DNA of 52,146 nt from Candidatus Wolfebacteria bacterium RIFCSPLOWO2_01_FULL_45_19 (GTDB taxonomy: Bacteria; Patescibacteriota; Minisyncoccia; UBA6257; GWB1-45-9). The notes below the pieces were generated by a model, which searched no databases, was not told the origin of the DNA, and was given only the letters and a program-made list of their open reading frames with translations. The position numbers and the translations under genes are program-made. The stretch's first letter is position 1; every line of letters begins with the position of its first letter. The stretch is taken from contig MGIR01000005.1 of the NCBI GenBank assembly GCA_001793855.1, positions 1-52,146 on the forward strand, written 5' to 3'. Shown here piece after piece: positions 6,305-38,885 of this stretch.

Positions 6305-6307
6305 ACT

Positions 6308-6673
6308 CTATGACGGAGGAAATAAAAAGGTTACCAGCCAAAAAAGCACAAGGTATGTAATCAGGAAAGTAAAACCAAGCGTTCCAACAAAAAGGCGGTG
6401 CCGAGTTATATCTGCAATAGTAATTTTTCTGACTCCTTGTTTTTTGAAATAAATAAACACGGTCGTAAAAGCGAGCAATAATCCTAAAATTACAAATTGC
6501 CAGCGGTATTCATGAAAAAGAATATTCTGAAACGCGATCGCGGTTGAAAAAGACGCCAAGCCGAGAATAAAAAGCATCCACGGAGTAAAGTAAAAGCCTA
6601 AAGACACAAGACCGTAAACAATGCCCCAGAAAACTCCCCACTTGTTTATTTTTTCGCGCAATGCCTCAAGCAT
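6308..6673 (-). CDS. Small multi-pass membrane protein (121 aa)
   Basis: Four hydrophobic segments. The gene is tightly packed, with 1-3 nt gaps on both sides. Confidence 0.6.
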   Translation of the reverse strand: MLEALREKINKWGVFWGIVYGLVSLGFYFTPWMLFILGLASFSTAIAFQNILFHEYRWQFVILGLLLAFTTVFIYFKKQGVRKITIADITRHRLFVGTLGFTFLITYLVLFWLVTFLFPPS

Positions 6674-6674
6674 G

Positions 6675-7619
6675 TTAAAACGGACGCTTCGGATAAAGTT
6701 CCGGGTCTATAGTCCGACTAAAACAAACTTCCCCGGAATTATGCTCCCAATTTTCTCCAAAACCGCCGAAAGGATATGCCGGTTCAAAATATGGCTTGGA
6801 CGCAATTTTCGCACCACCGCTAGAGGGGAGATTAAAACTGGCGCATAATTCAAAAGACAATTCGCCAACGGCGCGATAAACATATTCTTCTCGCATCTGC
6901 GAATCGAGCGGCGGAACGTAGCCGGAAATACTATCACGCAAATCGTCCAACGATTGCGGCAAACTGCCTTTCTGCGTCCAATAATTTACTACAGACATCT
7001 GAATTGATTGCAGGTCTGAAACTTTTTGCTGGTCAAAACGAACCAATCTTTGGGTAAACGGCGAACCGGCGACAAAAAAGCCGGCAACGACAGTAATCGC
7101 GACAACCGCGCAAGCCGCCCATACGAATGCTCTCACTCTGAAAGAGAATTCTCCAGCGGCTCTTCGCAGGTCATAAAGATAGTAGGCGAAAATCGCGGAA
7201 GCAACCGCGAAAACAGAAAGAATTTTCAGAAAGAAACGAACAGTCAGTTCTCCTTGCAAAAAATTGTATACGAGAGCGATCAAATCGCCTATCACCAAAA
7301 CCCCGGCGGCGAAAAGGGTAAAATAAAGAAGCCACTTTCTAACGCGAATCTCGCCTTTCTCCGGATTTTTCGCGCGATCTTTATACAAAGACCTTGAAGC
7401 CCATAAAAATACGGGGAATATTATTATAAGGGAAGCCAATGCCCATCTTATTGCTCCGCCGGCATCATAGTATAGATTGAGCGGGTCCGGAAAATAAACG
7501 TTAATATACTGAAAAAACAACGTCAGTAAACTAAACGCGCCGACATAAAGGGCAATAATCGCCAAAAGATGCATAAAAACGTCTTTCGGCGTGCTTTCTA
7601 TGTTTTGATTTGTTTCCAT
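6675..7619 (-). CDS. Multi-pass membrane protein with extracytoplasmic C-terminal domain (possibly DUF5671-like)
   Basis: 314 aa with about 6 TM segments in the first 200 aa. The family assignment is from memory only. Confidence 0.55.
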   Translation of the reverse strand: METNQNIESTPKDVFMHLLAIIALYVGAFSLLTLFFQYINVYFPDPLNLYYDAGGAIRWALASLIIIFPVFLWASRSLYKDRAKNPEKGEIRVRKWLLYFTLFAAGVLVIGDLIALVYNFLQGELTVRFFLKILSVFAVASAIFAYYLYDLRRAAGEFSFRVRAFVWAACAVVAITVVAGFFVAGSPFTQRLVRFDQQKVSDLQSIQMSVVNYWTQKGSLPQSLDDLRDSISGYVPPLDSQMREEYVYRAVGELSFELCASFNLPSSGGAKIASKPYFEPAYPFGGFGENWEHNSGEVCFSRTIDPELYPKRPF

Positions 7620-7623
7620 ATCC

Positions 7624-7651
7624 TAAATTCTAAATTCTAGATTCTAGATTC
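7624..7651. repeat. Tandem heptamer array (taaattc taaattc tagattc tagattc) between the transketolase-N stop and the next start codon
   Basis: Direct reading. The last unit overlaps the TGA stop at 7650-7652. Confidence 0.9.
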
Positions 7652-8513
7652 AATGGTGCTCTCTTTTCATCCTATCATAATTCGCGGCTAATTCCATAAG
7701 CGCGGCTTCGGCCTCGTCCGAATTTGGCGGCTTGCCGTGCCATTCAAACTTATTCTCCATAAAACTGACCCCCTTCCCGGGTATAGTATGGGCGATAATT
7801 ACCGTCGGTTTTTCGTAAATTGCGTGAGCTTCGTTAACCGCGTCAACAAAATGATGAATATTGTGCCCGTCAATCTCAATAACATGCCAATTGAACGCTT
7901 CGTATTTGTCCCTCAGCGGTTCAAGCGGCATTATGTTTTCGGTAAATCCGTCTATCTGGATGTTATTGCGGTCAATGACGCCGATAAGGTTATTCAGTTT
8001 GTTCTTGCCCGCGAACATCGCCGCCTCCCAAATGTTACCGCACTGCTGTTCGCCGTCAGACATCAAGCAATAAATTTTGCAACGCTTCTTGTCTAATTTC
8101 ACCGCCAAAGCCATACCGACAGCCTGCGACAAACCCGAACCGAGCGGACCGGAAGTCGTTTCCATTCCCGGTAAAGTGGCGCGGTGCGGATGTCCCTGCA
8201 GACGAGAATGAATTTTGCGGAGAGTTTTCAGTTCTTCCAGCGAAAAATATCCTGCGTGGGCCATAGCCGCGTAACGCACGGGACAAATGTGGCCGTTTGA
8301 TAAAACCAAGCGGTCGCGCTCGGGCCAATCCGGCTTCTTGGGGTCGTGCTTCAAAACGTGAAAATAAAGCGCGGTAAAAATATCGGCCATTCCCAGCGGT
8401 CCGGCCGAATGCCCGGACTCTGCTTCAACCAACATAGAAATAATGTCTTGGCGAATACGATTCGCCATCTCTTCGAGGAACTTTAGTTTTTTGTCGTGTA
8501 AACTCTCCAGCAT
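7650..8513 (-). CDS. Transketolase, N-terminal (thiamine-diphosphate-binding) subunit
   Basis: 287 aa. GHSAGPLGMADI, SNGH and GDGEQQCGNIWEA (the GDG-x-N TPP motif) are present. Confidence 0.9.
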   Translation of the reverse strand: MLESLHDKKLKFLEEMANRIRQDIISMLVEAESGHSAGPLGMADIFTALYFHVLKHDPKKPDWPERDRLVLSNGHICPVRYAAMAHAGYFSLEELKTLRKIHSRLQGHPHRATLPGMETTSGPLGSGLSQAVGMALAVKLDKKRCKIYCLMSDGEQQCGNIWEAAMFAGKNKLNNLIGVIDRNNIQIDGFTENIMPLEPLRDKYEAFNWHVIEIDGHNIHHFVDAVNEAHAIYEKPTVIIAHTIPGKGVSFMENKFEWHGKPPNSDEAEAALMELAANYDRMKREHH

Positions 8514-12107: not shown

Positions 12108-12641
12108 ATGTTAGATGGCGAAAAAAACATAATTCAGCGCGCCATTCGGGGTGAGTCCTCGGCTTTTGGTCAGCTTTACGACCATTATATGCCGATGATA
12201 TATCGCTTTGTTCTGTTGAAAGTTGGCCGCCGTGAGGAGGCTGAGGACCTCACCCATCAGGTATTTCTTAGCGCATTACAAAATATATCCGGCTATAAAC
12301 ATCTGGGACACCCATTTTCAAGTTGGCTGTACAAAATCGCGCGGAACTCAATTATAGACAATGCCCGCACCAAGAAAGAAACCATCCCACTTTACGACCT
12401 TGACATGGAACCGCACATTGAGCCGGCGATTGAAAAAACGCTGGACCTGAACAAAGAATTTAACAGCGCAATGAAAGCAATCGGACAATTGAACGAAGAA
12501 CAACAAAATGTAGTTATAATGAAGTTCATTGAAGGATTTTCTCACAAAGAAATAGCTGAAGCTTTAGATAAAAATGAGGGGGCGATAAGAACCATTCAGC
12601 ATCGAGCCATAATCAAATTAAAAAAACTTCTTTCGGTATGA
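12108..12641 (+). CDS. RNA polymerase sigma factor, sigma-70 family, ECF-like (regions 2 and 4)
   Basis: 177 aa. Region 2 is DLTHQVFLSALQNI...WLYKIARNSIID. Region 4 HTH is GFSHKEIAEALDKNEGAIRTIQHRAIIKLKKLL. Confidence 0.85.
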   Translation: MLDGEKNIIQRAIRGESSAFGQLYDHYMPMIYRFVLLKVGRREEAEDLTHQVFLSALQNISGYKHLGHPFSSWLYKIARNSIIDNARTKKETIPLYDLDMEPHIEPAIEKTLDLNKEFNSAMKAIGQLNEEQQNVVIMKFIEGFSHKEIAEALDKNEGAIRTIQHRAIIKLKKLLSV

Positions 12642-13159
12642 TGGAACAAGAAATAATTTCAAAACTTAAACAACTACAAAACATAAAACCGGATCCGGGA
12701 TACGCCGGGGTTTCGCGTAGCATGCTGATGGCGTTAATGCAGATGCCCAAACCGCGCCGAACGTGGTTTTTGTTGAGACAGCCACAGGCCCAGCCGCGGA
12801 TAACCTTAGCCGCCGTTTTGAGATACGCTCTGCCAGCAACTATCGCGGCAAGTTTTATGTTTTTGATGCTCGGCGGATATTCCACAATGCGCACCGCCTA
12901 TTTTGCCTTCAATTTTCCAGGACTTATGAATGAAAAAATCTTGGCCGCGGAACTCAATGATTTTGAAATACAGATTAAGATCGCGGAACTTCAGTACCAT
13001 GCCGACTCTTCAAAAACCGTGTCGCTCGCCCTGAACGAAGCGGGTTATTACGCCAATAATTTAAGTAACGATTTGATAAAAAACGAGGGGGATTTTCTCA
13101 ATGCGAAAAATCCGACAAACGAAAAAATAGACGAAGCTCTCAATGACCTTATATTATAA
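12638..13159 (+). CDS. Single-pass membrane protein, candidate anti-sigma factor
   Basis: ATGA overlap with the sigma gene, and one central TM (LPATIAASFMFLMLGGY). The assignment rests on position only. Confidence 0.35.
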   Translation: MMEQEIISKLKQLQNIKPDPGYAGVSRSMLMALMQMPKPRRTWFLLRQPQAQPRITLAAVLRYALPATIAASFMFLMLGGYSTMRTAYFAFNFPGLMNEKILAAELNDFEIQIKIAELQYHADSSKTVSLALNEAGYYANNLSNDLIKNEGDFLNAKNPTNEKIDEALNDLIL

Positions 13160-13991
13160 AAAACAAATATCATATATCTTAGCGGCGGCTATGTTCGCTG
13201 TTCCCGCGTTAACTTTGGCTGAATCAAACACCACGTCAACTTTAGCGCTGACAAATTCAACCTCGTCAACTGCCACGGAAGATATTGATACTCTACGAGC
13301 TCAACTCAACGCGCTGTTAAACCCAAAGGATGAGATGGGATTTATTTCCAACGAAGAAAAAAACGCGAGAGAGCTTAAGTTAAGGCACAAAATTTTGATT
13401 GGCAGTATCGCGCTTTCTTATATAGAAATAGACCAGCTGGCAAATCGTTTGAACGCCCTGGTTGAATTAAACGCAAAAGAGCAAGAAAAGAAGGAGGCCT
13501 ATTTGGAAAAGCTGGTCGGATATCTCAACTATCACGATGTAATCAGAGAAAAGGTTAATAATTTATCCAATGAAACGCTGAACGTTGAAAACATAAAGAC
13601 AGCGGCGAAAGAACTGCTTGATTGGCGACGCGATTTTTACATTTCGCCGATGAAAGAGATGTCGGCTTTTATATTGACGATAAAACAGCCGGCCGTATTA
13701 AAAATATCTCTTGAGCGACACGAAAAAATAGCATCTGACTTGCGAAAGCTCTCCCAGGGCGGATATATCAACCAAGAACAATTGTTTGAATTAACTCAAC
13801 TGCTTAATAAGGCAAGAGAATTACTAAGCGAAGCGCAAGCCATGAACAACGACGCGTACAACGTGCTGTTTACCGAAGAAAATAAAACCGGCCTTGACGA
13901 GCTTGCAAGATCGTCGCTTGAAAACATAAAATCCGCATACGCCATATTTATGGAAATGAGCGTTAAAGTTAAACAAATACTCTCAATATAA
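13143..13991 (+). CDS. Secreted helical protein
   Basis: 282 aa. The signal-like N-terminus is ISYILAAAMFAVPALTLAES, and the remainder is rich in coiled-coil-type sequence. Confidence 0.55.
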   Translation: MTLYYKKQISYILAAAMFAVPALTLAESNTTSTLALTNSTSSTATEDIDTLRAQLNALLNPKDEMGFISNEEKNARELKLRHKILIGSIALSYIEIDQLANRLNALVELNAKEQEKKEAYLEKLVGYLNYHDVIREKVNNLSNETLNVENIKTAAKELLDWRRDFYISPMKEMSAFILTIKQPAVLKISLERHEKIASDLRKLSQGGYINQEQLFELTQLLNKARELLSEAQAMNNDAYNVLFTEENKTGLDELARSSLENIKSAYAIFMEMSVKVKQILSI

Positions 13992-16043: not shown

Positions 16044-16484
16044 TCAAGCGTCCAGTTTCTTGATTCTCCTGACGTGTCGTTCTTCGTTAGAGAAAGGCGT
16101 ATTCAGCCATAGCTCCACGGCTTCCTTGGCTTCTTCAATAGAAACAAAACCAGCTGCCAAGGAAAGAACATTGGCGTCGTTATGTTCGCGCGAAAGTTTA
16201 AGAAGCTCCGCGTTTCCGCCGTACCACACAGCCGCGCGAACTCCTTTTACGCGGTTGGCGGTCATCGCCTCCCCCTGTCCGGATTTACCCATTACCAATC
16301 CGCGGCTATTTTTGTCTGCGGCTACGGCTTTCGCCACCAAAAAAATAAAATCCGGATAATCATCGGCAGGGTCGCGACTGAACGCGCCTTTGTCTTCAAC
16401 TTGGTGTCCCAGCCCCGAAAGATATTTTTTTAACTCTTCTTTCATCTCAAAGCCGGCGTGGTCAGAACCGATATAAATCATCAT
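16044..16484 (-). CDS. rpiB: Ribose-5-phosphate isomerase B
   Basis: 146 aa with IYIGSDHAGFEMKEELKKYL and GKSGQGEAMTANR (RpiB/LacAB family). Confidence 0.85.
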   Translation of the reverse strand: MMIYIGSDHAGFEMKEELKKYLSGLGHQVEDKGAFSRDPADDYPDFIFLVAKAVAADKNSRGLVMGKSGQGEAMTANRVKGVRAAVWYGGNAELLKLSREHNDANVLSLAAGFVSIEEAKEAVELWLNTPFSNEERHVRRIKKLDA

Positions 16485-17239
16485 AGAAATTCTGAAAATA
16501 CAAAAGCTAAAATCGCGACTGCTCCAAGCGCGCCGCTAAAAATAAAAAGGTTGCGCGTTGACTTTGAAATAACCGTTTCTCCGGAAACCGGTTTTAATTC
16601 CTTAAGATTTTTATAAATCATGAAAAGATACGCAACCGCGAACGGCGAAAGCATGGTGCCAAACAGCGCATTAAATATTGAAGACGAAGGAATTAAAGTA
16701 AAAAAATAAGACAACGCGGAAAAGATAGCGAATAAAAACGCAAACCGCCAAAAAACCGGCAACCAATATCCACGAACGTATTCTTTACTGGCCAAAAGCG
16801 CGTAAAATCCCTTTTTGTTTTCAAGTACCAAAATAAAAACTCCGAAGATAAACCACACGGTAAAAATTAAAGCCGGCGCGAAAAGCATTACAAAACCTCC
16901 AAACACGATTAAGCCGCCGAGAACGCTTAACCAAAAATAGGACAAAATATAAGGCGTGGAATCGCGATATGCTGAAATAACGTCGCCGCCACGACTTACG
17001 ACAAGAACAAGCGCTACTGCAGAAGCAATGGAAAAAGCGATACCGGCAGCCGAAAATAAAACTCCGGCAAAATCTCCAAGAGGACTCCCCGGACCGATGG
17101 CGATTTCCGCGAAGAAAAAAAGAAGGTGCGGCACTACGGCTATGCCGACAAGAACCAAAAACTTGTCGCTATATACGCGCCATGCTCCGCGAAGAATTTC
17201 ATTTATTGAAATTAATTTGTTGCTTATAACGGGATTCAT
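16481..17239 (-). CDS. Multi-pass membrane protein, unknown function
   Basis: 252 aa with about 6 TM segments. It is ATGA-coupled to both gap (upstream) and rpiB (downstream). Confidence 0.6.
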   Translation of the reverse strand: MNPVISNKLISINEILRGAWRVYSDKFLVLVGIAVVPHLLFFFAEIAIGPGSPLGDFAGVLFSAAGIAFSIASAVALVLVVSRGGDVISAYRDSTPYILSYFWLSVLGGLIVFGGFVMLFAPALIFTVWFIFGVFILVLENKKGFYALLASKEYVRGYWLPVFWRFAFLFAIFSALSYFFTLIPSSSIFNALFGTMLSPFAVAYLFMIYKNLKELKPVSGETVISKSTRNLFIFSGALGAVAILAFVFSEFL

Positions 17240-18252
17240 TTGACTTTAGCGACGGCCTCCACGTGTTTTACCAGCGTCGCGACATAACCCATTTCGTTGT
17301 CATACCAGCTGAGAATTTTTACAAGGTCTCCGTCAATTACTTTTGTGAATTTCAAATCAACAATGGCGCCATACGGTTCACCTATTATATCCGAAGAAAC
17401 AATCTGTTCTTCTGTTACGGCAAGAATCCCCTGCCAGCGCTTGCTCTTCGCGGCTTTTTTTAAAATATCGTTTATTTCTTCAATTGACGTCTTACGTTTT
17501 GAAACAAAAGTTATGTCGGCAAGCGAACCGGTAGCGATAGGTACGCGCATGGCAACTCCGTCAAACTTTCCGTCAAGTTCTTTAATCGCGCGGGTAACGG
17601 CTATTGTCGCTCCCGTAAACGACGGCACAATGTTCTGCGCCGCGGCACGGCCTCGCCTGAAATCGTTTCCCCTAATCGGCCCATCAACTAAATTCTGCGT
17701 TGCCGTATAACCGTGAACCGTGCTGAGGACCGCCTTATGTATTCCCGGATTTTCGGCCAAAATCGCGATAACCGGAGACGCCGCGTTGGTAGTGCAAGAA
17801 CCGTTAGAAGTCATAACGACCGAATCAAGTTCGCCGTTATTTACGCCCATAAGCACGGTTTTCCCTTCCGCGCCGTCTGGGTCTTTTGCCGGAGCCGTTA
17901 TTACGACGCGCTTGGCTCCCGCCGAAAGATGCGCTTTGGATTTTTCATAGGACTCAAAAATTCCAGTTGACTCCACCACGATGTCAACGCCGAGCTCTTT
18001 CCACGGCAACATCGCCGGATCTTTCACTTGCAAAACTTTGACAATTTGTCCATCAACCACAAGATTGTCGCCCTTGACTTCAACTTTTTTGCCGAACCTG
18101 CCATACGTCGTGTCGTATTTCAAAAGATAGGCAAGGTTTTCCACGTCACCGAGGTCATTTATGGCGACGATATCAAAATTTTTATTTCCGAACGCGGCGC
18201 GGAAGAAAAGCCGTCCGATGCGCCCGAATCCGTTGATGGCTATTTTTGACAT
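17236..18252 (-). CDS. gap: Glyceraldehyde-3-phosphate dehydrogenase (type I)
   Basis: 338 aa with INGFGRIGR, the SNGSCTTN active site and WYDNEMGY. Confidence 0.95.
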   Translation of the reverse strand: MSKIAINGFGRIGRLFFRAAFGNKNFDIVAINDLGDVENLAYLLKYDTTYGRFGKKVEVKGDNLVVDGQIVKVLQVKDPAMLPWKELGVDIVVESTGIFESYEKSKAHLSAGAKRVVITAPAKDPDGAEGKTVLMGVNNGELDSVVMTSNGSCTTNAASPVIAILAENPGIHKAVLSTVHGYTATQNLVDGPIRGNDFRRGRAAAQNIVPSFTGATIAVTRAIKELDGKFDGVAMRVPIATGSLADITFVSKRKTSIEEINDILKKAAKSKRWQGILAVTEEQIVSSDIIGEPYGAIVDLKFTKVIDGDLVKILSWYDNEMGYVATLVKHVEAVAKVK

Positions 18253-18288
18253 ACTATCATTTTAACTTATTGAAGTTAATTTCAATAG

Positions 18289-18360
18289 TGCGCGGTAGAA
18301 GGATCGAACTTCTGGCCTTTCGCATGTCAAGCGAACGCTCTACCACTGAGCTAACCGCGC
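18289..18360 (-). tRNA. tRNA-Val (anticodon GAC)
   Basis: The reverse complement is GCGCGGT-TA-GCTCAGTGGTAGAGC-G-TTCGC-TTGACAT-GCGAA-AGGCC-AGAAG-TTCGATC-CTTCT-ACCGCGC-A. No CCA is encoded. Confidence 0.9.
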
Positions 18361-19333: not shown

Positions 19334-19487
19334 ATCAAGTGGAGCACATTTGTTAGAACTTGCGCTTAGCAGTCAGAATATTGTTTATTTTTCAGAAGGG
19401 TTTGGACGACGTCAGAACCTCCAAGATTTGTTAAGTAGAAATGGCAAGAGATGCGCTGGAGCACTAAGAGTCCACTTTTCACCATTG

Positions 19488-19559
19488 TGGGTGTGGAAGG
19501 AATCGAACCTTCGACCTCTGTCTTATCAGGACAGCGTTCTACCACTGAACTACACACCC
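19488..19559 (-). tRNA. tRNA-Ile (anticodon GAU)
   Basis: The reverse complement is GGGTGTG-TA-GTTCAGTGGTAGAAC-G-CTGTC-CTGATAA-GACAG-AGGTC-GAAGG-TTCGATT-CCTTC-CACACCC-A. Confidence 0.9.
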
Positions 19560-19570
19560 AAAATTTTTAG

Positions 19571-19780
19571 TTAAAGCCCGAGCTCTCTCGCTTTTTCCAA
19601 ATTAAATCTTACCGGAGATTCATCCTCCGGCGTAGAAACGTTTATGGCGCCGCTAAGCGAACGGAAAAGAAAAGTAAACGTGAAAATAACGATAAGAACG
19701 ACTGCCAACAACATTGAAACGTTAATAATCAATATTGTCAACTGATTTTTATTTTTAATAAAAGGAAATTTGGGCATCAT
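19571..19780 (-). CDS. Small single-pass membrane protein
   Basis: 69 aa with TM LTILIINVSMLLAVVLIVIFTFTFLF. It has a 4-nt overlap with the upstream gene. Confidence 0.5.
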   Translation of the reverse strand: MMPKFPFIKNKNQLTILIINVSMLLAVVLIVIFTFTFLFRSLSGAINVSTPEDESPVRFNLEKARELGL

Positions 19781-20298
19781 CTTATAAACAACACGCCGGC
19801 AGTTCTCGCTTCCGCGGTGGTGGCGGCGCTGATTAATTCAAACAAACCAAAATTAACAATATATCCAGAATCATTGACGCTGTTTAAAAAAGAAAAAATG
19901 TCCTCAGATCGCCCTCTTGCAATCATGTTGAAAGATATGTTCCCGGCGGATGTTTCAGTACCGATAGTTTCTCCGGTTATATTAAGCGACACGTCCACGC
20001 CGTGTTCGGACGCAAAATCGGAAACATCCTGCATAAATTCAAACAATCTGCTTCTGTCCGGCAGAACCGTCGCTAAAACCTCTCTGTAAGCGCTCGCCAG
20101 TTCGGTTTCGGAGCGCAAAACCGCCAAGTTTTCAAGATTACTTGAGTAAAGCAAAATCCTGTCTCTTGACTCAATAACCGTTTCAACACGATTGTTTATT
20201 CCATAAAGAAGCGCGAGCAAAACAACACCCAAAGCAAAAAGCGCGGCCGATGCTATAACTAAACGTCTAATTAAAAGCTTGCGGAATCCAAGCGTCAT
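19777..20298 (-). CDS. Membrane-anchored protein, possibly PilO-like
   Basis: 173 aa with an N-terminal TM, a helical segment and then an alpha/beta domain. The PilO resemblance is architectural only, and no pilM/pilN is adjacent. Confidence 0.3.
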   Translation of the reverse strand: MTLGFRKLLIRRLVIASAALFALGVVLLALLYGINNRVETVIESRDRILLYSSNLENLAVLRSETELASAYREVLATVLPDRSRLFEFMQDVSDFASEHGVDVSLNITGETIGTETSAGNISFNMIARGRSEDIFSFLNSVNDSGYIVNFGLFELISAATTAEARTAGVLFIR

Positions 20299-20463: not shown

Positions 20464-20913
20464 TTAAACTTTATATCTGAAATCTGTTCTTCCCGGCAAC
20501 TTGCGTTTTTTCAGCTCTTCATAAAAATGGGTGACGAGGGGCTTATTCGTCCATTCCCTTTTGTACAATTCGCCGCCGTCGTAACCAATCATTTTCACAA
20601 AAACGACAGTTGATTCGTCAAAATTTTGCGGAACTTGAAAATCTCCGTTTCCAATCTCAGTCAGCAATACTTGAAATATGAAAATTCTGACTTCGTTTCC
20701 ATTTTTCCGAACCAGCGTCAGCTTGATTGTCGGCAAAGCGCCGACCAGCGCCAACTGTTCGTCAACAAGCGGCGAGTTTAGAGCTTCCGCGAGCCATACG
20801 GCTACCTCGGAAGGAAACGCAGGAAAAACCGGTTTCTGTTTCTGTTCGGCGGAGTACGCGCCGAAAGAAACCGCTAACAACACGACTGCGAACAAAGATT
20901 TCATAACGTTCAT
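20464..20913 (-). CDS. Secreted protein (149 aa), unknown family
   Basis: I place the start at ATG 20913, with AAGGAG 6 nt upstream. The signal peptide is MNVMKSLFAVVLLAVSFGAYSA. The longer ORF to 20979 lacks a ribosome-binding site. Confidence 0.65.
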   Translation of the reverse strand: MNVMKSLFAVVLLAVSFGAYSAEQKQKPVFPAFPSEVAVWLAEALNSPLVDEQLALVGALPTIKLTLVRKNGNEVRIFIFQVLLTEIGNGDFQVPQNFDESTVVFVKMIGYDGGELYKREWTNKPLVTHFYEELKKRKLPGRTDFRYKV

Positions 20914-20938
20914 AACGCTCTCCTTTCTGGGTTGGCAG

Positions 20939-21061
20939 AACAACAAAAATAGGCAAGTCCCGATTGATTTTCGACTCAAAGAGCTGTGGCGCGTTCACGC
21001 CTCAGCCACTTAGGAATAGAGTCGACGCTCAATCGGAGCTTGCCCTTTTCTTTCTATGGTT
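20939..21061 (-). ncRNA. Candidate structured leader / small RNA: three nested stems followed by a U-rich tract
   Basis: Minus-strand RNA pairings:
- GCAAG-c-TCCGATTGA (21043-21029) pairs with TCAATCGG-ga-CTTGC (20967-20953).
- TCGACTC (21025-21019) pairs with GAGTCGA (20977-20971).
- GTGGC (21009-21005) pairs with GCCAC (20990-20986).
The structure is followed by UAUUUUUGUUGUU (20951-20939). Confidence 0.45.
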
Positions 21062-21136: not shown

Positions 21137-21181
21137 AAAAAAACCCGCCTGGAACAAAAAATGTATTTTGCGCCAGACGGG
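21137..21181 (-). terminator. Rho-independent terminator ending the three-gene MotA/ExbD-like operon
   Basis: On the minus strand CCCGTCTGG pairs with CCAGGCGGG (9 bp, one G-U) and is followed by TTTTTTT. It begins 13 nt after the stop at 21194. Confidence 0.75.
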
Positions 21182-21193
21182 AACTGGTAATTT

Positions 21194-21721
21194 TTACTGA
21201 GACACTTCAGGTGGTCCGGGTTTTTCAAAATTCAGCTTCTCCTTGGGCCTCCAAGTCACGTTCGGTATCTCTTGTTTGCCTCCGAATGCGATAGTTGTCA
21301 CGCCCGGTTCAAATCCGAATTCTATTAAAAAAGCAATTATGCTTTTGGCTTTTTCGGAATCGCGCGGAAGAACGCAGAAGTGCATCGCGTCTCCCCACCG
21401 CTCGACTGCCCGCACTATGAGAATAAGAGTTTCGGGCCCGTATGGATTTGATGATTTCTCCGGACGCACATCAACGGACTCCAACACAAACACCGTTTTA
21501 CCGCCGCCATATTCCACACAATTGACGTCCGGCAATCCTCGATAAGCAGGCGGAACCATCAATAACGCAATCGCTATAAGCGGAAAAGAAAACGCTACCG
21601 CGACAATAACGGTCTTAGACAGCAATCTCTGCCTGAACCATATTCCGACCACAAAGAGAAAGGCCATCAGCGCTACGCCGATAAGCACAATGCCCGCGAT
21701 GTTGTCGGTGATATATATCAT
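21194..21721 (-). CDS. Two-TM membrane protein with about 110-aa C-terminal soluble domain, third gene of the MotA/ExbD-like operon
   Basis: 175 aa with TMs IAGIVLIGVALMAFLFVVGIWF and VIVAVAFSFPLIAIALLMV. It has an ATGA overlap with the upstream gene and a GAGGAG ribosome-binding site. Confidence 0.6.
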   Translation of the reverse strand: MIYITDNIAGIVLIGVALMAFLFVVGIWFRQRLLSKTVIVAVAFSFPLIAIALLMVPPAYRGLPDVNCVEYGGGKTVFVLESVDVRPEKSSNPYGPETLILIVRAVERWGDAMHFCVLPRDSEKAKSIIAFLIEFGFEPGVTTIAFGGKQEIPNVTWRPKEKLNFEKPGPPEVSQ

Positions 21722-22389
21722 CGATATCTCCTCGTAGCCATCGGCACGAATTCCGCATTCGGATAAATCTTAATCGATCCGGGAATGACCTGATTTTTTT
21801 CATCCCATTCCGCGTAAAAAAGCGTCAATTCTTCTCCGGGCTTTGTAAGTTCGGCGGCAACGACGGCTAAAGCTTTCTCGTTATCCCCGTCTTTCTGTTC
21901 TATAATCACGAGATCAAGAGCCACCGGTATCTCGCCGCCATGACTGTGATACAAGTGCGCATTAACACGGCAACGGGAATTCGGCAGCACTTCCGAAACT
22001 TCGGAATTGGACTTAATCACCTCCAAATTGAGAACGCTGGGTCGCCCCAAATCGTCTCTATCCAGGCCAAGCCATCGATGCAGGCGCTGCATATAGCTCA
22101 CTTCAACGACGTTTCTTTTTTCTCCGCCGATCTCTTGCCAGCAAGTCATCCATGTATCAATATCGTGCGGAAAGCCGGCGAGCCAGCGAAGCTGTATGAA
22201 AAGCGCGGTGGGCGCTATGGAGACTTTCTTTTCGGCGACATCTTTCGGCGGAGGATTTATGTAAGGGATTGACATCGCGGCTGTCAACAGACCGGTTGCC
22301 GCAGCGTTGGTCATCAAATCAATCATGGCCACGAAAATAGCTAAAAATCCCAAATTGGTGCGAGAGCCCTTATTTTTTCTCAGCCCCAT
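21718..22389 (-). CDS. ExbD/TolR/MotB-like single-pass protein (TM aspartate) with an unrecognised about 170-aa C-terminal domain
   Basis: 223 aa. After a basic tail, the TM GFLAIFVAMIDLMTNAAATGLL carries ID-L-M at the position of ExbD FIDVML and MotB ADFMT. GGAGG lies 6 nt upstream of the ATG. No OmpA-like motif is seen. Confidence 0.5.
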   Translation of the reverse strand: MGLRKNKGSRTNLGFLAIFVAMIDLMTNAAATGLLTAAMSIPYINPPPKDVAEKKVSIAPTALFIQLRWLAGFPHDIDTWMTCWQEIGGEKRNVVEVSYMQRLHRWLGLDRDDLGRPSVLNLEVIKSNSEVSEVLPNSRCRVNAHLYHSHGGEIPVALDLVIIEQKDGDNEKALAVVAAELTKPGEELTLFYAEWDEKNQVIPGSIKIYPNAEFVPMATRRYR

Positions 22390-23179
22390 ATTCCACCTCC
22401 TTCAGTTCATTGTCTTTATAACCGAATTCCTCGCTATGAATAACCGGAAATACGGCTTCAAACATTTTTGTTCTGAAACGGAAAGCGATATCCGTGGCGC
22501 ACTCGTCTATAAAGCCGTGAAGCACGAAAAGAATAAGGCCGCCGCCTATGCCCAAAGCGCTAGTGGTATAAGCCAAGCCGGCGCCGGAGAGAATTCCGAA
22601 AGAAAACTCTCTGATTTGTTCGACATTAGCGGGAATGCTCTGCACCGCCAAAGCCAAAATAATTCCGACGAGCGTTCCAAGAAATCCGACGTTGAACAAG
22701 ACCCATTGAAACTTCTCAAGAATCGCGAGGTTACGCGTTAATTCGGCTTCAAAATAATCCTGAAACATGCTGCGGTTGACCGGTTCAAAAGTTTTCACTT
22801 TTCGCGTGACTCTTATGCGTTCGGCCAAACTCGCCACAAAACGGCAAACCGTAGAGTTTTTCACGGCTCGTTCATTGCGACGCGCGTAAAATTCATCAAG
22901 TATTCTCCGCGCCGTCGCAACACCGTCTTCCGGCGAATGGATAAGGCATTCCTCCAAATAACGCAGATGTTGGTCATCGCGATAAAGCTGTAAAGCGGCT
23001 TTATATCCAATTACGATATAAGCCCACAAAAATATGCACAAAAGAAAAATTGAAGCCACCAAAATCTTTGGCTCGCTAAAGCGTTCATAAGCCCAAGCAA
23101 AAAATCCGTATTGCCATCCCATCAAAACAAGAACAATCAAAAGAACCGTAAACAACCAGTAACGAACGTAGGCTCTCAT
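22370..23179 (-). CDS. MotA/TolQ/ExbB-family proton-channel-like protein
   Basis: I place the start at ATG 23179, with AAGGAG 6 nt upstream (269 aa). There are four TM segments and an approximately 100-aa loop between TM2 and TM3. The C-terminal GFLGTLVGIILAL...GLAYTTSALGIGGGLILFVLHGF resembles the MotA_ExbB signature. Confidence 0.6.
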   Translation of the reverse strand: MRAYVRYWLFTVLLIVLVLMGWQYGFFAWAYERFSEPKILVASIFLLCIFLWAYIVIGYKAALQLYRDDQHLRYLEECLIHSPEDGVATARRILDEFYARRNERAVKNSTVCRFVASLAERIRVTRKVKTFEPVNRSMFQDYFEAELTRNLAILEKFQWVLFNVGFLGTLVGIILALAVQSIPANVEQIREFSFGILSGAGLAYTTSALGIGGGLILFVLHGFIDECATDIAFRFRTKMFEAVFPVIHSEEFGYKDNELKEVEYGAEKK

Positions 23180-23193
23180 TCTGCTCTCCTTAA

Positions 23194-23223
23194 TTGTCAA
23201 GATAACCTCCGTTATACTATACT
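23194..23223 (+). promoter_or_regulatory. Candidate dprA promoter TTGTCA-N18-TATACT (leaderless or very short leader)
   Basis: The hexamers lie at 23194-23199 and 23218-23223. ATG is at 23231 with no Shine-Dalgarno sequence. Confidence 0.3.
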
Positions 23224-23230
23224 CCACAGT

Positions 23231-24073
23231 ATGAAAACACAACCCCTGTCGCCTTCTTTAAAAGAAATTCCCAATCCGCCGAAAAATTTTTATGTGGAAG
23301 GAATTTTGCCGGATTTTTCGCGTCCGTGGCTCGCGATTGTCGGCACAAGAAAAGCTACAAGCGAAGGATTGCGGCTCGCAAAAAATTTCGCGAAAGAACT
23401 CGCGCAAAATAACTGCGTTATAGTCAGCGGCCTTGCGCTCGGAATTGATTCCGCAGCGCATCAAGGCGCGCTTGACGGCGGCGGCCAAACAGTCGCCGTC
23501 CTGGCAAACGGGCTAGACAACATTTATCCGGCGCAAAACGAAAATCTTGCGAAAAAAATTTTAGAAACTGGCGGGGCTATTGTTTCCGAGTATCCCGACG
23601 GAACGCCATCTTTGCCGCATCAGTTTTTAGAACGCAATCGGATCATAAGCGGCTTGTCCATCGCCACCGTGGTAATTGAAGCTCCGCAAAAATCCGGAGC
23701 GCTGGCCACCGCGGGATTTGCCGCTTCGCAAGGCAGAGAGGTTTTTGTTATTCCCGGCCCTATTAGCCATTCGAATTATCGCGGCTCCCACGCCCTAATA
23801 AGAGACGGCGCGCGACTTGTAACCTCACCGGAGGAAGTTCTTGAAGACCTCGGCCTTCAGACGAAAGAACTGAAGAACAATGCGACTCTCCCTTTTGGAG
23901 GTAGCGATGAACAAAAGAAAATAATTTACCACATAGAATCCGCCGGCCGTCCGCTTGCGGTTGACGAAATAATTATTTTAGCTAAACTTGAACCCCGAGT
24001 CGTCAACCGAGAGCTGGCTCTGCTAACGATTCAGAGCATAATTAAAGAAACAGAAAAAGGATACACGATTTAA
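23231..24073 (+). CDS. dprA: DNA-processing protein DprA
   Basis: The protein starts at the internal ATG (MKTQPLSPSLKEI...). Motifs include IVGTRKATSEG, SGLALGIDSAAHQGAL and a C-terminal winged-helix-like tail. Confidence 0.85.
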   Translation: MKTQPLSPSLKEIPNPPKNFYVEGILPDFSRPWLAIVGTRKATSEGLRLAKNFAKELAQNNCVIVSGLALGIDSAAHQGALDGGGQTVAVLANGLDNIYPAQNENLAKKILETGGAIVSEYPDGTPSLPHQFLERNRIISGLSIATVVIEAPQKSGALATAGFAASQGREVFVIPGPISHSNYRGSHALIRDGARLVTSPEEVLEDLGLQTKELKNNATLPFGGSDEQKKIIYHIESAGRPLAVDEIIILAKLEPRVVNRELALLTIQSIIKETEKGYTI

Positions 24074-32069: not shown

Positions 32070-35000
32070 TTACGGACTCTCTAAAATAATTTCATTAGCC
32101 GTGTCGCGCACCATAAACTTTGCGTTAATAAGCGATGAATCGCTAAACAGTCCGCCTGCGGAATTGGTATCAGTGCCGAAAAATCTGACCTTACCAGAAG
32201 ACTTAATGCTAAAAGTCCATCGATACGTTTTGCCGGCTTCAAGCAAGGGATTAAGCGCATTATCGTAACTAAATGTCAAACTGTCAGCGCATCCACTGCC
32301 GCGATAAGCGTAAACCTCGCTTTCGCCGTCCGCCGGATTGGTTAAATCGTTGTTCGCGATTAATTTCGGCGCAGAACCGTCAACCAGCTCATACAAACCA
32401 AGATAGCAAATATTGGAATTTCTGTTTCTGCTGTTCGTTTGAAAATCAGCGATGGAAACTTGAATTGAAGACAAATTGCCGCTCTTTTGTGGAACAAAAT
32501 CCTGACTGGCGTTATCAAGTTGAGAACTCACGGAATATTGAATAAAATCCGACGGGAAAGACCAGGTTGAAGTGGCCGTGTCGGAAACATTGCCAAAATC
32601 ATCAATAGCGCGCAACCCGATCAAATAGTCGTTGCCCTGCTCTACAATTTTTCCGCCCACTTCTGTCCACGCGTCATCCAAAAATTCAGACGATGCGGAA
32701 TAGTTGGACTGATACCTGATCAACCAATCAAACGTATCCGAGTCGGTTGATTTGTTCCAATTAAAACTCAAATTCGCGGTTAAATCGCCGAACAGAAGCT
32801 CTGTAATTTCCGGCTTTGTAGGTTTTGCTTGCGGAGGAAGTTCTTCCTGAAAAAATATTTTTGTATTATCAACGGCGACCAACGAAAACGCTTGCCTGTT
32901 ACTTGGACCTGAATCTGAAAAATCATAAAAAGACGCCGTCAAATAATCTGCCGGCGACAAACTTTCTCCTTCTGGCAAATTAACATTTAGTCGTATCACC
33001 GGTATTTGCAACTGCCAGGAACTCAAAGCGCTGTTCGTAACGCCGCCCCCATCGCCGCAACCAGAACCAGAATCCGGAAGAATAAGAATTGGGCCAGCCG
33101 AACTCGATCCGCTGCCACAACGCGGATAGCTTACGTTAAGTATTTTATTATCGCCTTCCGGAGGAAACCAGCCCTGCGGATTGTTTATAGATCCAATATT
33201 ATATGCGTCTCTGTTTAGTGAAAAAATGGCTAACTTCCATTTATCCCTTAACTCTCCAAAAATATCCGGCACAAAAGGATAATCACTAAAACGCAATTCA
33301 ATTAAATAATCAGTATCCGATTCGGTGCGCGTATCGGGAAAGAAATAAATCGCATCTAAAAAACTCGGCACATTTATTTGTGCCGAACCCGCTATTTTTT
33401 CCGTTCCTTCTTCATCCACGGCCCGTATTTCAAAATTATAATCCCGGCCAATTTCATAAACCGGATAAACATAGCTTATCTCCGTGGTGGTCGCGACTAA
33501 AACGGAGGGACTGTTGAAAGTGTAAACTGCGTAATAACTGGCGCCTTCGCCGCCAGACGCGTCCCAAGCAAGATTAATTGTCATTGTTTCCGGATTATAG
33601 CTCGCTTCCGTCTCGGGAACGCATGTCGCCTCCTGCGCTTTCGGACTGGGGCAATCGCGCAACTCAAAATCCGCGGAGTTATTATCGATATCTGCAAACA
33701 ATCCCCCGTCCCATTTACGCTGAATGCTCTGCATGGCTCCAGGCTCTTGGGCTGGAATATTTTCAACAAAAACATTCAGGGCATTGCCCCACCCGACGCT
33801 GTCAATAATTTCGCCGGTGTCCGCCGGACCAAAACGCAAAGCAATGCCGTTATCTGACGCCATAGAACCACTCGTCGTAACATCTGGAGACACGGATATG
33901 TCAACGTATCCGCTATTTGCCCAGAGATAATAACCTCCGGCCGAAATAAGCGCGTCGTCGGTCCATGACTTAATTCCAGTATCCGAACTGCCGCTCTGAG
34001 TCCTCTTAACCAGCCTGTATCCTTTTAAATTCACCGCGGAACTATTTGGATTATGTAACTCAATAAAATCATTTGTGGTTTTACCCGGACCGCCGGTTAT
34101 CTGAACTTCGCTTATTAGAATTTTCATGGCTTGTTGCTGTGTACTGGTTGCTTCATTTTGATTTTGTTCGTTATCTTGCTGCTGATTGGAATCGTTGTTT
34201 GTCGGTTGAGAAAGATTAGTTTGCGAACCGCTCCCGCCACCGCTCGGCGGCGTTACGTTGCCTACCGTAATCTGGTCTTTCATTTTTTCAAAAGTCGCGT
34301 CTCCGATGCCGCTCACCTTCTTGATGTCTTCAATATAGTAAAAAAGTCCATTGGCGTTCCTATAGTCAATAATGAGCTGGGCCTTGGCCTGTTTTATTCC
34401 TGTAATTTTTTGAAGCTCCTCCAAGCTCGCGGTGTTTATGTTGATTGGAAACACAACTTCTACTGCCGTCTCCGCCACAGTCGCCTCTTCTATAACATCA
34501 TTTGTGATTTCCTTTACTATTTGCTGAGCCACTTTTTCCGCCGTCGCTTCAACATTCGCGGTTGTCTCGGTCTTCGTTTCTTCTATTGTCCTCTCCACCT
34601 TCGCCGCAAGCTCCTCTTCGCTGATTGTAATTTCTTTAATTGTAACTCCGTTTTCTTCGCCGCTGAACAAATTCTTAACGGCGTCTATCACGCGCGCAAG
34701 AAAAGATTTTCGTTTCTGCTCAGCGAAGCTCGGGTCATTTTTCGCTTTTTCAACTTCCTCAAAGAAAAGATTGATAACACCGGCACCGTGTTGGATGGAC
34801 TTGGCAGAGAGGAGACGCCAATAGTCTTTTAAAACTTCGTCTCCTCCTTCTTTGGTGCCCTCTATCAAAATTTTTGAACTAACGATATGACTAAAAGCGC
34901 TGGGTTCTTGAAGGGCTAATTTATATTCTCCAAAATTTTTATCTATCCTGATAGCAAATTCATATTTGCCATCTAATACAAAGTATTCTGGGTCTGGTGA

Positions 35001-35741
35001 TTTATATTTACCTAACCCTATGGTTCCCTTGCTATAAAAATTATTATTTGAGTAATTTGCAACATCATTAAAATAATTCTTAAGTTCTGAAAGAATAATT
35101 GGCTGTCTATTCTGCAAATTTTTTAATAAATCGGCATTGTAAACTTCCGGTTGCTTTGCGTAATTTTCATAAGGGCTGTAATCCTCTCCCCATCCCGGAT
35201 GCGCGTCATTGCGGGTATGGTCCGGCACCGAAGCGTCTTCATTAAGATGCAGAATATGGCCCAAAAGAAACATCGCTTTTTCTTCGTCGCCGTTCACATA
35301 AAAATAAATAGCCCGCCTCCATGTGAAATCAGTTTCGGTCGTAAGCGCGCCCAAACTTTTCTGCTGTACAGCGTTAAGAATTGATGCGAAGGCCGTTGTT
35401 ATTTTATATTTCGGCTCATTTTGTTTATCGGCGTCAACTGCCCATTCCTTTGACCGGTAGCCGTTGCCGTATATTGATTCCAGTCCGCGGTCATAAACCG
35501 GGTCGTAAAAATGGTTCATCCAGCGCGGCAAGTCGTCTTCGCGTCGCGCGCCATCCACCAGATAATTTTTCAATTCTTCCGGAATTATTTGGTTGGGAAA
35601 ATTTTGATTGTAGAAATCAAAAATGTTCTCCGTCAAAGCCGCGTGCGTATCCACGCCATAAGCAAAAATATTCTGCGGTATTAAAAAAACTCCAACCAAA
35701 ACAGCCGGAGCTAAAAATTTTACAAACTTTCTATTTTCCAT
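32070..35741 (-). CDS. 1223-aa secreted multidomain protein: Zn-dependent phospholipase C / P1-nuclease-like domain, ComEA-type helix-hairpin-helix DNA-binding domain, lamin-tail domain, then Fn3/Ig-like repeats
   Basis: The signal peptide is KFLAPAVLVGVFLIPQNIFA. Domain evidence:
- Phospholipase C / P1-nuclease-like motifs are YGVDTHAAL, RREDD, NHFYDP and GHILHLNEDASVPDHTRND (nt about 35187-35663).
- The ComEA-type domain is ININTASLEELQKITGIKQAKAQLIIDYR...VSGIGDATFEKM (nt about 34260-34448).
- The lamin-tail domain is ILISEVQITG...NDFIELHNPNSSAVNLKGYRL (nt about 33648-34127). Confidence 0.75.
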   Translation of the reverse strand: MENRKFVKFLAPAVLVGVFLIPQNIFAYGVDTHAALTENIFDFYNQNFPNQIIPEELKNYLVDGARREDDLPRWMNHFYDPVYDRGLESIYGNGYRSKEWAVDADKQNEPKYKITTAFASILNAVQQKSLGALTTETDFTWRRAIYFYVNGDEEKAMFLLGHILHLNEDASVPDHTRNDAHPGWGEDYSPYENYAKQPEVYNADLLKNLQNRQPIILSELKNYFNDVANYSNNNFYSKGTIGLGKYKSPDPEYFVLDGKYEFAIRIDKNFGEYKLALQEPSAFSHIVSSKILIEGTKEGGDEVLKDYWRLLSAKSIQHGAGVINLFFEEVEKAKNDPSFAEQKRKSFLARVIDAVKNLFSGEENGVTIKEITISEEELAAKVERTIEETKTETTANVEATAEKVAQQIVKEITNDVIEEATVAETAVEVVFPININTASLEELQKITGIKQAKAQLIIDYRNANGLFYYIEDIKKVSGIGDATFEKMKDQITVGNVTPPSGGGSGSQTNLSQPTNNDSNQQQDNEQNQNEATSTQQQAMKILISEVQITGGPGKTTNDFIELHNPNSSAVNLKGYRLVKRTQSGSSDTGIKSWTDDALISAGGYYLWANSGYVDISVSPDVTTSGSMASDNGIALRFGPADTGEIIDSVGWGNALNVFVENIPAQEPGAMQSIQRKWDGGLFADIDNNSADFELRDCPSPKAQEATCVPETEASYNPETMTINLAWDASGGEGASYYAVYTFNSPSVLVATTTEISYVYPVYEIGRDYNFEIRAVDEEGTEKIAGSAQINVPSFLDAIYFFPDTRTESDTDYLIELRFSDYPFVPDIFGELRDKWKLAIFSLNRDAYNIGSINNPQGWFPPEGDNKILNVSYPRCGSGSSSAGPILILPDSGSGCGDGGGVTNSALSSWQLQIPVIRLNVNLPEGESLSPADYLTASFYDFSDSGPSNRQAFSLVAVDNTKIFFQEELPPQAKPTKPEITELLFGDLTANLSFNWNKSTDSDTFDWLIRYQSNYSASSEFLDDAWTEVGGKIVEQGNDYLIGLRAIDDFGNVSDTATSTWSFPSDFIQYSVSSQLDNASQDFVPQKSGNLSSIQVSIADFQTNSRNRNSNICYLGLYELVDGSAPKLIANNDLTNPADGESEVYAYRGSGCADSLTFSYDNALNPLLEAGKTYRWTFSIKSSGKVRFFGTDTNSAGGLFSDSSLINAKFMVRDTANEIILESP

Positions 35742-37934: not shown

Positions 37935-38885
37935 TTACTTTTTTCTCTTGAGCAAATAGCCGTAAGCGGCCAAGGCGGCTTTTACCGCGTCTCCCGCAGA
38001 AATATTATTTTGTTTGTACGGATCATCGGTTATGTCACCTGCGGCAAAAATTCCAGAAACGGAAGCGGCGGCGTGCTTGGAATCAATTTTAACCTGTCCC
38101 CATTGATCCAGCTCAACAAAACCTTTGACCATTTCGGAATTTGGGACGGAGCCAACCTCAACAAAAACGCCTTCAACTTTCAATATATTCTCCTCGCCGC
38201 TTTTGACGTTTTGGTACTTTATGCCGTCAACCATTTTGTCTCCAAAAATTTCGTAGGGCTTGGCATTGAATATTACTTGTTTGAGTTTCGGGTTGTTTCT
38301 GATTTCTTCTTGAATAACGGGGTCCCCTTTCAAGGTTTCTCCGCGCGTTATAAGATAAATTTCCGAGGCGTAAGGAAATAAATCCTGCACTGCTTCAAGT
38401 CCGGCGTTGCCGCCGCCGATTACTGCCACTTTCTTGTCCGCGAAAATCGGGGCGTCGCAAGTTGAACAAAAAGAAACGCCCCTGCCATCAAATTTGTCTT
38501 CGCCCGGCACGCCGAGGCGGCGGCGACGCGCGCCTGCCGCAAGAATCAAGGTCTTGCTCTGATATTTGCCGCCTTTGTCGGTTTCAACTTCAAAATCATA
38601 TTCGCGGTCGCCATCCGCGCATTTTATTTTTGAAACCCTAATCACAAGTTCCGGCATTTTAATGGCAACGTCGTCTGGAAAGGCACGGACATGCTCCTCA
38701 AATTTTTTCGCCAAATCAAAACCGGTGATACTTTTTTCCCCTATCCAGTTCTGAATGCCATCGGAAACAATGGACTGGCCGCCGAACGATTCGGTTATTA
38801 AAAGCGTTTTAAGTTTTTTTCTTGCGGCGTATACAGCGGCTGCAACACCGGCTGGACCGCCGCCAACTATAATCACATCGTACAT
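37935..38885 (-). CDS. trxB: Thioredoxin-disulfide reductase
   Basis: 316 aa with the FAD site VIIVGGGPAG, the redox-active CSTC, the NADPH site VIGGGNAG and GIFAAGD. Confidence 0.9.
   Translation of the reverse strand: MYDVIIVGGGPAGVAAAVYAARKKLKTLLITESFGGQSIVSDGIQNWIGEKSITGFDLAKKFEEHVRAFPDDVAIKMPELVIRVSKIKCADGDREYDFEVETDKGGKYQSKTLILAAGARRRRLGVPGEDKFDGRGVSFCSTCDAPIFADKKVAVIGGGNAGLEAVQDLFPYASEIYLITRGETLKGDPVIQEEIRNNPKLKQVIFNAKPYEIFGDKMVDGIKYQNVKSGEENILKVEGVFVEVGSVPNSEMVKGFVELDQWGQVKIDSKHAAASVSGIFAAGDITDDPYKQNNISAGDAVKAALAAYGYLLKRKK

Follow-up and report, generated by a model that had tools for sequence, protein, structure and literature searches.

Motors of the MotA/ExbB type power flagella, force transduction by the Ton and Tol systems, gliding and type IX secretion, and Zorya defence. 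A three-gene operon on the minus strand of the 52,146-nucleotide (nt) stretch analyzed in this study (contig MGIR01000005.1 of Candidatus Wolfebacteria bacterium RIFCSPLOWO2_01_FULL_45_19; referred to as the window) raises the question of what such an apparatus may do where none of these outputs is at hand: the window contains no partner genes of the flagellar, Ton, Tol-Pal, gliding, type IX or Zorya systems, and for all of these except type IX the initial annotation had already noted their absence next to the operon. We propose, with a probability of about 0.6, that its three products (referred to as A, B and C, in the order of transcription) assemble in the cytoplasmic membrane into a self-contained complex of the MotA/ExbB ("5:2 motor") type, which is restricted, as far as sampled, to the Candidate Phyla Radiation (CPR)/Patescibacteria. 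A complex with an ion pathway that serves as an envelope-directed energy transducer is favored to the same degree, while true motor action, suggested by analogy, is less probable.

The genes for A (22370-23179; 269 amino acids from the ATG), B (21718-22389; 223 amino acids) and C (21194-21721; 175 amino acids) are all open reading frames (ORFs) of the minus strand, and direct reading confirmed their coupling as first described: the ATG of B (at 22389) lies 20 nt inside A, whose TAA ends at 22370, and the ATG of C overlaps the TGA of B within an ATGA (21721-21718). The purine-rich ribosome-binding sites (RBSs) previously reported for each gene were also read directly on this strand: AAGGAG for A (23186-23191, 6 nt ahead of the ATG), AAGGAGGTG for B (22394-22402, within the 3' end of A) and GAGGAG for C (21728-21733, within the 3' end of B). 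The position of the B site inside A represents translational coupling. ATG 23179 was taken as the start of A because the resulting N-terminus (MRAYVRYW) matches the first residues of homologues and AAGGAG precedes it, whereas the gene caller had used an upstream TTG at 23242 in the public protein (P0001). The hairpin terminator was likewise found at 21137-21181 (minus strand), with a 9-bp stem (including one G-U pair), a structured loop and U7; its folding energy was -23.1 kcal/mol (z = -4.8), and none of 200 shuffled sequences was as stable. A simple terminator scan had missed it because the loop is long and internally paired. Directly past the terminator, a promoter with perfect consensus (TTGACA-16-TATAAT; 21095-21068, minus strand) serves the next gene, which is therefore a separate transcription unit. 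No promoter for A was found by a consensus scan of the minus strand upstream of this gene. The overlaps, internal RBSs and terminator together indicated that A-B-C is one translationally coupled operon with a strong terminator.

By hydropathy, A contains four transmembrane (TM) segments (residues ~8-27, 39-57, 160-178 and 202-224) with a loop of ~100 amino acids between TM2 and TM3, and ends in a short tail ~45 residues past TM4; this topology and the motifs quoted for it at the outset were both present. A alone matched MotA_ExbB (PF01618) of Pfam with an E value of 0.0019, below threshold (18.4 bits against a gathering cut-off of 22.9 bits). In NCBIfam, ZorA_2 scored 22.9 bits against a cut-off of 100 (E 3.7e-5) and exbB2 19.2 against 135, and the match to ZorA1 of PADLOC was weak (E 4e-4). 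Since a word-indexed protein search recovered almost nothing (only A itself with the single sequence, and one further protein with the family alignment), an exhaustive HMMER search of 1.84 billion representatives (E <= 1e-3) was needed, and relatives were collected both from this search and from the genes upstream of B homologues. The search returned 107 proteins, ~45 of which form a close family; PF01618 was matched by 72 of the 107 (best E 1e-14).

A profile of 42 sequences of the close family gave clearer assignments: its ten best matches in the PDB were all ExbB, ZorA, TolQ or "MotA/TolQ/ExbB" chains. The match to ExbB (7ajq; E 1.7e-5) aligned query residues 42-250 with 68-268, from the first TM helix of ExbB to its end, that to ZorA (8qyh; E 3.4e-5) covered ZorA residues 23-216, and TolQ was matched with an E value of 0.026. 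By hhalign, the A family aligned with TolQ and ExbB of E. coli over the last two TM helices (87.5% probability, E 3.6e-6), with GFLGT169LVGI of A in register with GLFGTVWGI of TolQ/ExbB. The region corresponding to the TM2-TM3 core of ExbB/TolQ (22430-22753, minus strand; residues ~143-250) includes this motif and GLAYTTS. Within the 42 sequences, G165, T169 and G172 were conserved in 37, 34 and 35, respectively, and T or S was common at positions 206-207; F162, G165, G172, P183, G201 and Y204 were invariant in close relatives, and the outer loop between the last two helices carries a conserved Q-x-x-P183-x-N-P-E-E. A therefore has the G-x-x-G-T in TM3 and the T/S in TM4 that are the ion-path residues of the MotA/TolQ/ExbB superfamily. 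Compared with ExbB and TolQ, A aligns over the TM core including the G-T motif but has an extra N-terminal TM helix; the resulting count of four, with a long cytoplasmic TM2-TM3 loop, is that of MotA and PomA, although the profile matched ExbB, ZorA and TolQ chains in the PDB rather than MotA. These profile matches, the hhalign alignment and the PF01618 relatives place A, at the profile level only, as a divergent member of the superfamily and as a candidate for a pentameric ion-channel/rotor subunit. The proposed MotA/ExbB likeness was thus upheld for the family profile, but not for the single sequence.

Because the single-sequence similarity of A was highest to ZorA models, a Zorya-like anti-phage defence, with the A/B channel as a sensor of envelope disturbance caused by phage, has to be considered, and ZorA indeed appeared in NCBIfam, PADLOC and the PDB, as listed above. 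However, the score of 22.9 bits against 100 is far under the curated cut-off, the long cytoplasmic tail of ZorA is absent from A, and no Pfam domain, hence no peptidoglycan-binding domain as in ZorB, was detected in B. B and C were also unmatched in PADLOC, neither ZorC/D/E-like nor other effectors were conserved nearby, and no defence-island context was found at the triad, which lies among core genes with synteny and occurs in genomes down to 0.86 Mb; viral contigs and PHROGs contained no matches. The defence output put forward initially therefore found no support beyond the weak ZorA matches, and we consider it highly improbable.

B consists of a short basic N-terminal tail, one TM helix, a Pro-rich linker and a beta-sandwich ectodomain. 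The membrane-embedded carboxylate, Asp24 (GAT codon at 22318-22320, minus strand, read directly), was invariant in all 11 close homologues of an 11-sequence alignment, and each of the 17 homologues examined had a carboxylate at this position (16 with Asp, one with Glu); the acidic residue initially noticed at an ExbD/MotB-like position is thus conserved. The family comprises about a dozen relatives at 40-55% identity, among which 33 columns are invariant, and more distant ones beside distant A homologues. The Glu was found in a B encoded at 6804-7517 of a locus (L019) in the complete 859 kb genome CP066682.1, where FVENMIL replaces MIDLMTN; the HLYHSHGG motif of this protein is likewise depleted of most of its His residues, but D76, D78, D112, N121 and E123 of the ectodomain are still invariant. 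A conserved exit motif, P-(F/Y/H)-(I/V)-N-P-P-P-K, follows 17-19 residues past the acidic residue, which is therefore in the cytoplasm-proximal part of the helix, and comparison of the sequences revealed a depth similar to that of TolR D23, ExbD D25 and MotB D32 (the functional role of these residues is summarized in PMC9389320). A single N-terminal TM helix, a carboxylate near the cytoplasmic side and a gene directly after A are the features of the B subunit in 5:2 complexes; the basic tail, single TM helix and Asp, together with the overlap between the A and B genes, also resemble MotB and PomB.

On the other hand, B was not matched by any model of Pfam, NCBIfam and PADLOC (11 members each) or PHROGs, its profile matched no PDB sequence, and hhalign against TolR and ExbD gave a probability of 0.3%. 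Among the Pfam families considered for the pair, PF01618 was thus reached by A below threshold, and PF02472 and PF13677 were not matched by B. As originally remarked, no OmpA-type peptidoglycan-binding or TonB-type domain was found by the Pfam search, nor was the plug motif of MotB/PomB detected. A kinship of B with ExbD or MotB was therefore not borne out by sequence or profile, and the likeness is one of architecture, by which B is a candidate axle/stator subunit.

The ectodomain of B (residues ~58-215; 21745-22218, minus strand) was predicted with confidence in an AlphaFold2 (AF2) model: the predicted local distance difference test (pLDDT) score was 81 overall and above 90 over residues 60-220, which form an all-beta domain. 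Its top Foldseek matches in the PDB were the TerD homologues 2qz7 and 2qng (probabilities 1.0 and 0.99; E 4-5e-3; TMt 0.47-0.53), and the matches among the viral models of BFVD included proteins annotated as TerD-like. A TerD-type beta-sandwich is therefore predicted, with moderate support from Foldseek and the AF2 model, and the earlier view of an outer domain with no known relative stands for sequence but not for fold. Membership of the TerD family is not claimed because the profile-profile comparison was not significant: PF02342 was not matched in 11 members at E values up to 1, and hhalign of B against TerD/TerE/TerZ gave 0.7% probability (E 0.076).

TerD proteins are soluble and cytoplasmic, and their acidic motifs (DxD and GDNxTGEGDGDDE) bind Ca2+. 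The domain of B differs in being membrane-anchored and extracytoplasmic and in having a conserved Cys pair, and no ter genes are nearby. Its invariant residues are D76, D78, D112, N121, E123 and the Cys83/Cys140 pair; in the same non-significant hhalign alignment, D112, D113, N121 and E123 are opposite GDNxTGEGDGDDE of TerD, and D76 and D78 are near DLD. The ectodomain is possibly cation-binding. Cys83/Cys140 fits an extracytoplasmic location and, together with the Cys68/Cys116 pair of C (see below), fits ectodomains that face outward; a DsbA-like gene in the window is in line with this.

The fold of B and the high conservation of its acidic positions are also the basis of the main rival explanation, in which the triad is a regulated ion channel or sensor and not a motor: the TerD-like ectodomain would bind Ca2+ or another metal, or sense envelope stress, and gate a leak through A/B that is modulated by C, as a membrane-bound analogue of Ter-type stress modules. 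The cytoplasmic loop of A, which has no recognizable torque or partner interface, would be compatible with this. However, homology to TerD is not established at the sequence level, and all of the characterized complexes of the MotA/ExbB family transduce force (reviewed in PMC9389320). We regard a channel or sensor as unlikely, although it deserves to be kept in mind; the neighboring genes that bear on it are described below.

C is a hairpin of two TM helices followed by an ectodomain of ~115 residues, according to hydropathy and the AF2 model; since the loop connecting the helices is positively charged (FRQRLLSK), the positive-inside rule suggests that both termini are outside. Cys68/Cys116, W109-G110, H114, F146-G147 of an F-G-(G) motif and E151-x-P-N are invariant in the ectodomain, and a P-P-E tail is also present. 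No family match was obtained in Pfam (six members searched) or in single-sequence scans of NCBIfam, PADLOC and PHROGs, and the profile of C matched no PDB sequence. The AF2 model was of moderate confidence (pLDDT 71) and had no convincing match by Foldseek (best E 0.1). C is thus, as first described, a 2-TM protein with an unrecognized soluble domain.

The order of the three genes is that of exbB-exbD-tonB and tolQ-tolR-tolA: a multi-TM channel protein, a bitopic subunit with an Asp in its TM helix (at a similar depth to TolR D23 and ExbD D25) and a third membrane-anchored protein. A degenerate Tol/Ton remnant without current function, in which C is a decayed equivalent of TolA or TonB, would fit this order. 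However, all three proteins are under strong purifying conservation (as in the 33 invariant columns of B), and the ORFs, coupling and terminator are intact. Furthermore, C has two TM helices and lacks an SHLS-type helix, a Pro-rich rod and a TonB_C or TolA domain, in contrast to TonB and TolA, and the ectodomain of B is TerD-like in its predicted fold instead of an ExbD/TolR domain. The hosts also differ: those of Ton/Tol are diderm, while the labelled hosts of the triad are CPR bacteria. We give little credence to a relic, which is the least probable of the alternatives.

The triad was constant across the related loci. The order A-B-C recurred in every related locus found: B and C were adjacent in 13 of 13 loci, which agrees with the initial designation of C as a third partner, and A was upstream of B-C in all 11 loci whose contig extends that far. 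The genes overlapped or were separated by gaps of at most 21 nt, and the same triad surrounded members of the A family as distant as E 1e-9. No conserved fourth gene was found in an all-against-all ORF comparison of the 13 loci, in which only opposite-strand shadow ORFs of the triad appeared. All of the loci with taxon labels belong to the CPR (Parcubacteria, Paceibacterota and, in L010, Saccharibacteria), and these host genomes are very small, in agreement with the earlier impression of a reduced CPR-type genome; the cluster representative of C is KKU14907.1 ("Parcubacteria group bacterium GW2011_GWB1_45_9"), and one triad locus (L019) is in the complete genome of 0.86 Mb. A pattern scan of one genome per species (~185,000 species) revealed at least two loci, which is a lower bound because the two exact peptide patterns used are missing from more divergent members, L019 among them. 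Viral contigs contained no relatives, and a phage origin was rejected on this basis. As expected from the initial proposal, homologues never lay inside Ton, Tol, flagellar or pilus loci among those examined, nor did partners of the Ton, Tol, flagellar, gliding or Zorya systems adjoin them; TonB-dependent transporter and Pal/TolB genes were absent from the window and the fetched flanks.

The flanking genes varied by locus and included an M48 peptidase with large secreted proteins, MscS, dprA (in the window and L008), an MsrB-BipA-GH18 block and, in the translations of L015, a PspC/PadR-like pair. An extracytoplasmic function (ECF) sigma factor and DUF5667 pair directly upstream of the triad in L001 and L002 (L001 102-1937) hints at regulation by envelope stress. 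Such neighbors (ECF sigma with DUF5667, M48 peptidase, MscS, MsrB and PspC/PadR), often related to the envelope or stress, are in favor of the channel or sensor described above, but the themes are not conserved across loci, and the association with stress is impressionistic. In L015 (1325-9289) and L019 (6001-12795), genes for MsrB, the BipA/TypA GTPase and a GH18 hydrolase with a peptidoglycan-binding domain adjoin the triad in opposite relative orientations; this block could be lineage synteny or a loose functional neighborhood.

Since A was placed by homology and B by architecture, the simplest model is a complex of the ExbBD/MotAB type. In the complex that we infer, together with its stoichiometry, ion flow, rotation, cation binding and envelope-directed output, several copies of A, by analogy five, would surround the TM helices of two B subunits. 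H+ or Na+ would flow down its gradient through the A/B interface, passing the buried Asp24 of B beside the polar Thr/Ser residues of TM3 and TM4 of A, and this flow would drive a movement of A relative to B, as in the mechanism of the family, in which ion flow through a buried carboxylate moves A against B (PMC9389320). The rigid Pro-rich linker would hold the B ectodomain outside the membrane as a disulfide-stabilized TerD-like sandwich, with a probable divalent-cation site formed by D76, D78, D112, D113, N121 and E123. This domain would replace the peptidoglycan-binding or ExbD-type domain and may anchor the axle to the wall or a surface layer, or sense cations. C would be at the periphery through its 2-TM hairpin, in place of TonB/TolA as the moved or regulating element, and present its own small ectodomain outside. 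The strongly conserved outer motifs (the TM3-TM4 loop of A, the linker and ectodomain of B and the ectodomain of C) suggest that the three proteins meet outside the membrane. A precedent within the 5:2 type is provided by GldL-GldM and PorL-PorM of gliding and type IX secretion, whose axle has a large, non-peptidoglycan-binding, all-beta periplasmic extension through which movement is passed outward (PMC8986121 and PMC9389320). However, GldM is long and multi-domain while the B ectodomain is a single TerD-like domain, no search gave a sequence match to GldL/GldM, and there are no type IX secretion genes.

Several points weigh against this reading. A alone is under the curated cut-offs of Pfam and NCBIfam, and the Glu of TM3 in ExbB/TolQ is not present in A in the hhalign alignment. 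No sequence similarity of B to ExbD, TolR or MotB could be detected, its resemblance to them being architectural, and TM helices with one conserved Asp also occur outside stators. The link of B with TerD is by fold only (TM-score ~0.5; Foldseek E 4e-3; hhalign E 0.076). Since the model of C is moderate and matches nothing, the output role proposed for this protein is an analogy. The initial idea of a stator-like motor with a new output was therefore sustained with regard to the superfamily of A, the TM carboxylate of B and the lack of known partners, whereas motor action and output are still conjectural.

A more far-reaching version, which we put forward tentatively and hold to be possible but not probable, is that the triad represents a new class of rotary motors of the ion-driven 5:2 type, peculiar to ultra-small CPR bacteria, in which a cation-binding TerD-like axle end performs mechanical work with C on the surface. 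If true, this class would act on a cell surface without an outer membrane or flagellum, for example in envelope remodelling, in surface-layer or appendage dynamics or in attachment to a host cell. Each new output found earlier showed another use of the same rotary core; here the engine is familiar, and the novelty lies in the two outer components and in the host group. In full-text literature searches, no link of TerD with MotA, ExbB or TolQ and nothing relevant on Saccharibacteria with stator terms was found, and the papers searched reported no motor of this kind with outer domains of the B and C type. Within this literature, the triad would be the first case of a TerD-type fold connected with an energy transducer of the membrane. 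A survey of MotAB homologues described non-flagellar relatives as "generic ion transporters", some without known function, and did not mention CPR bacteria or TerD-like partners (PMC12505986). If the complex is a working motor, three genes and one critical Asp would offer a small genetic entry to the envelope mechanics of CPR bacteria.

The window is a stretch of ordinary chromosome of a CPR bacterium. The triad is near genes for RNase Y, RpiB, GAPDH, two tRNAs, DprA, TopA, RelA/SpoT, ParAB and PGI; farther out are pentose-phosphate enzymes, an ECF sigma factor, thioredoxin/DsbA-like proteins and a polysaccharide cluster. The tRNA genes (18288-18360 and 19487-19559) lie 1.6-2.9 kb from the triad on one side only, the other flank being dprA-topA-relA according to the translations, and the GC content of the locus (0.47-0.48) is inside the range of the window. 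The "tRNA-flanked accessory stretch" of the initial annotation was thus not confirmed, and a mobile or accessory island was rejected because of the core neighbors, the normal composition and the dprA synteny shared with L008. The dprA gene (23234-24073, plus strand) is divergent from A with ~55 bp between them, in the same arrangement as in L008, and a sigma-70-like site for dprA (23194-23223) overlaps the leader of A. No flagellar genes accompany A and B in the window, in contrast to flagellar stators.

These neighbors bear on another alternative, namely that the complex powers or controls type IV pili or the uptake of DNA, both of which are at the center of how CPR bacteria live. Two overlapping small genes adjoin the tRNA-Ile gene (19571-20298, minus strand): one encodes a 173-aa protein with a sub-threshold match to PilO (Pfam E 4.8e-4; 20.7 against 22 bits), 1.4 kb downstream of the triad, and the other a 69-aa single-TM protein. 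Together with dprA, divergently upstream in the window and L008, and a ComEA-like protein encoded elsewhere in the window, this PilO-like gene would be in favor of pili or uptake. However, its match is sub-threshold, a terminator, a promoter and another gene separate it from the triad, and the pair is not conserved beside the triad in other loci; indeed, no pilus or competence gene was conserved beside the triad in the 13 loci. Type IV pili are, moreover, ATP-driven. The pilus-associated output, suggested at the outset, thus rests on one weak neighbor, and is very unlikely. The ComEA-like protein (32070-35741, minus strand; 1223 amino acids) has a lamin-tail domain in addition to its helix-hairpin-helix DNA-binding module of the ComEA type (HHH_3), and may bind DNA at the cell surface as part of the competence apparatus.

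Several other features of the window were observed. The gene served by the consensus promoter past the terminator of the triad (20464-20979, minus strand) encodes a 171-aa protein with a signal-peptide-like start (MNVMKSLFAVVLLAVSFGAYSA) and no family match. On the same strand, the genes for GAPDH, a 252-aa multi-TM protein without a family match (16481-17239) and RpiB (16044-18252 as a whole) overlap at their stops and starts, as would be expected of a single operon. Thiol chemistry is represented by a thioredoxin reductase-like gene (37935-38885, minus strand) and the DsbA-like thioredoxin gene (39650-40360, minus strand). Past the ECF sigma factor gene (12108-12641, plus strand) there are two overlapping ORFs that match no family and may be an anti-sigma pair (12108-13991 for all three). 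Finally, transketolase is split (5309-8513, minus strand) into separate genes for the N-terminal half (7650-8513) and the pyrimidine-binding/C-terminal half (5309-6304), and a DUF5671 membrane-protein gene (6675-7619) sits between them.

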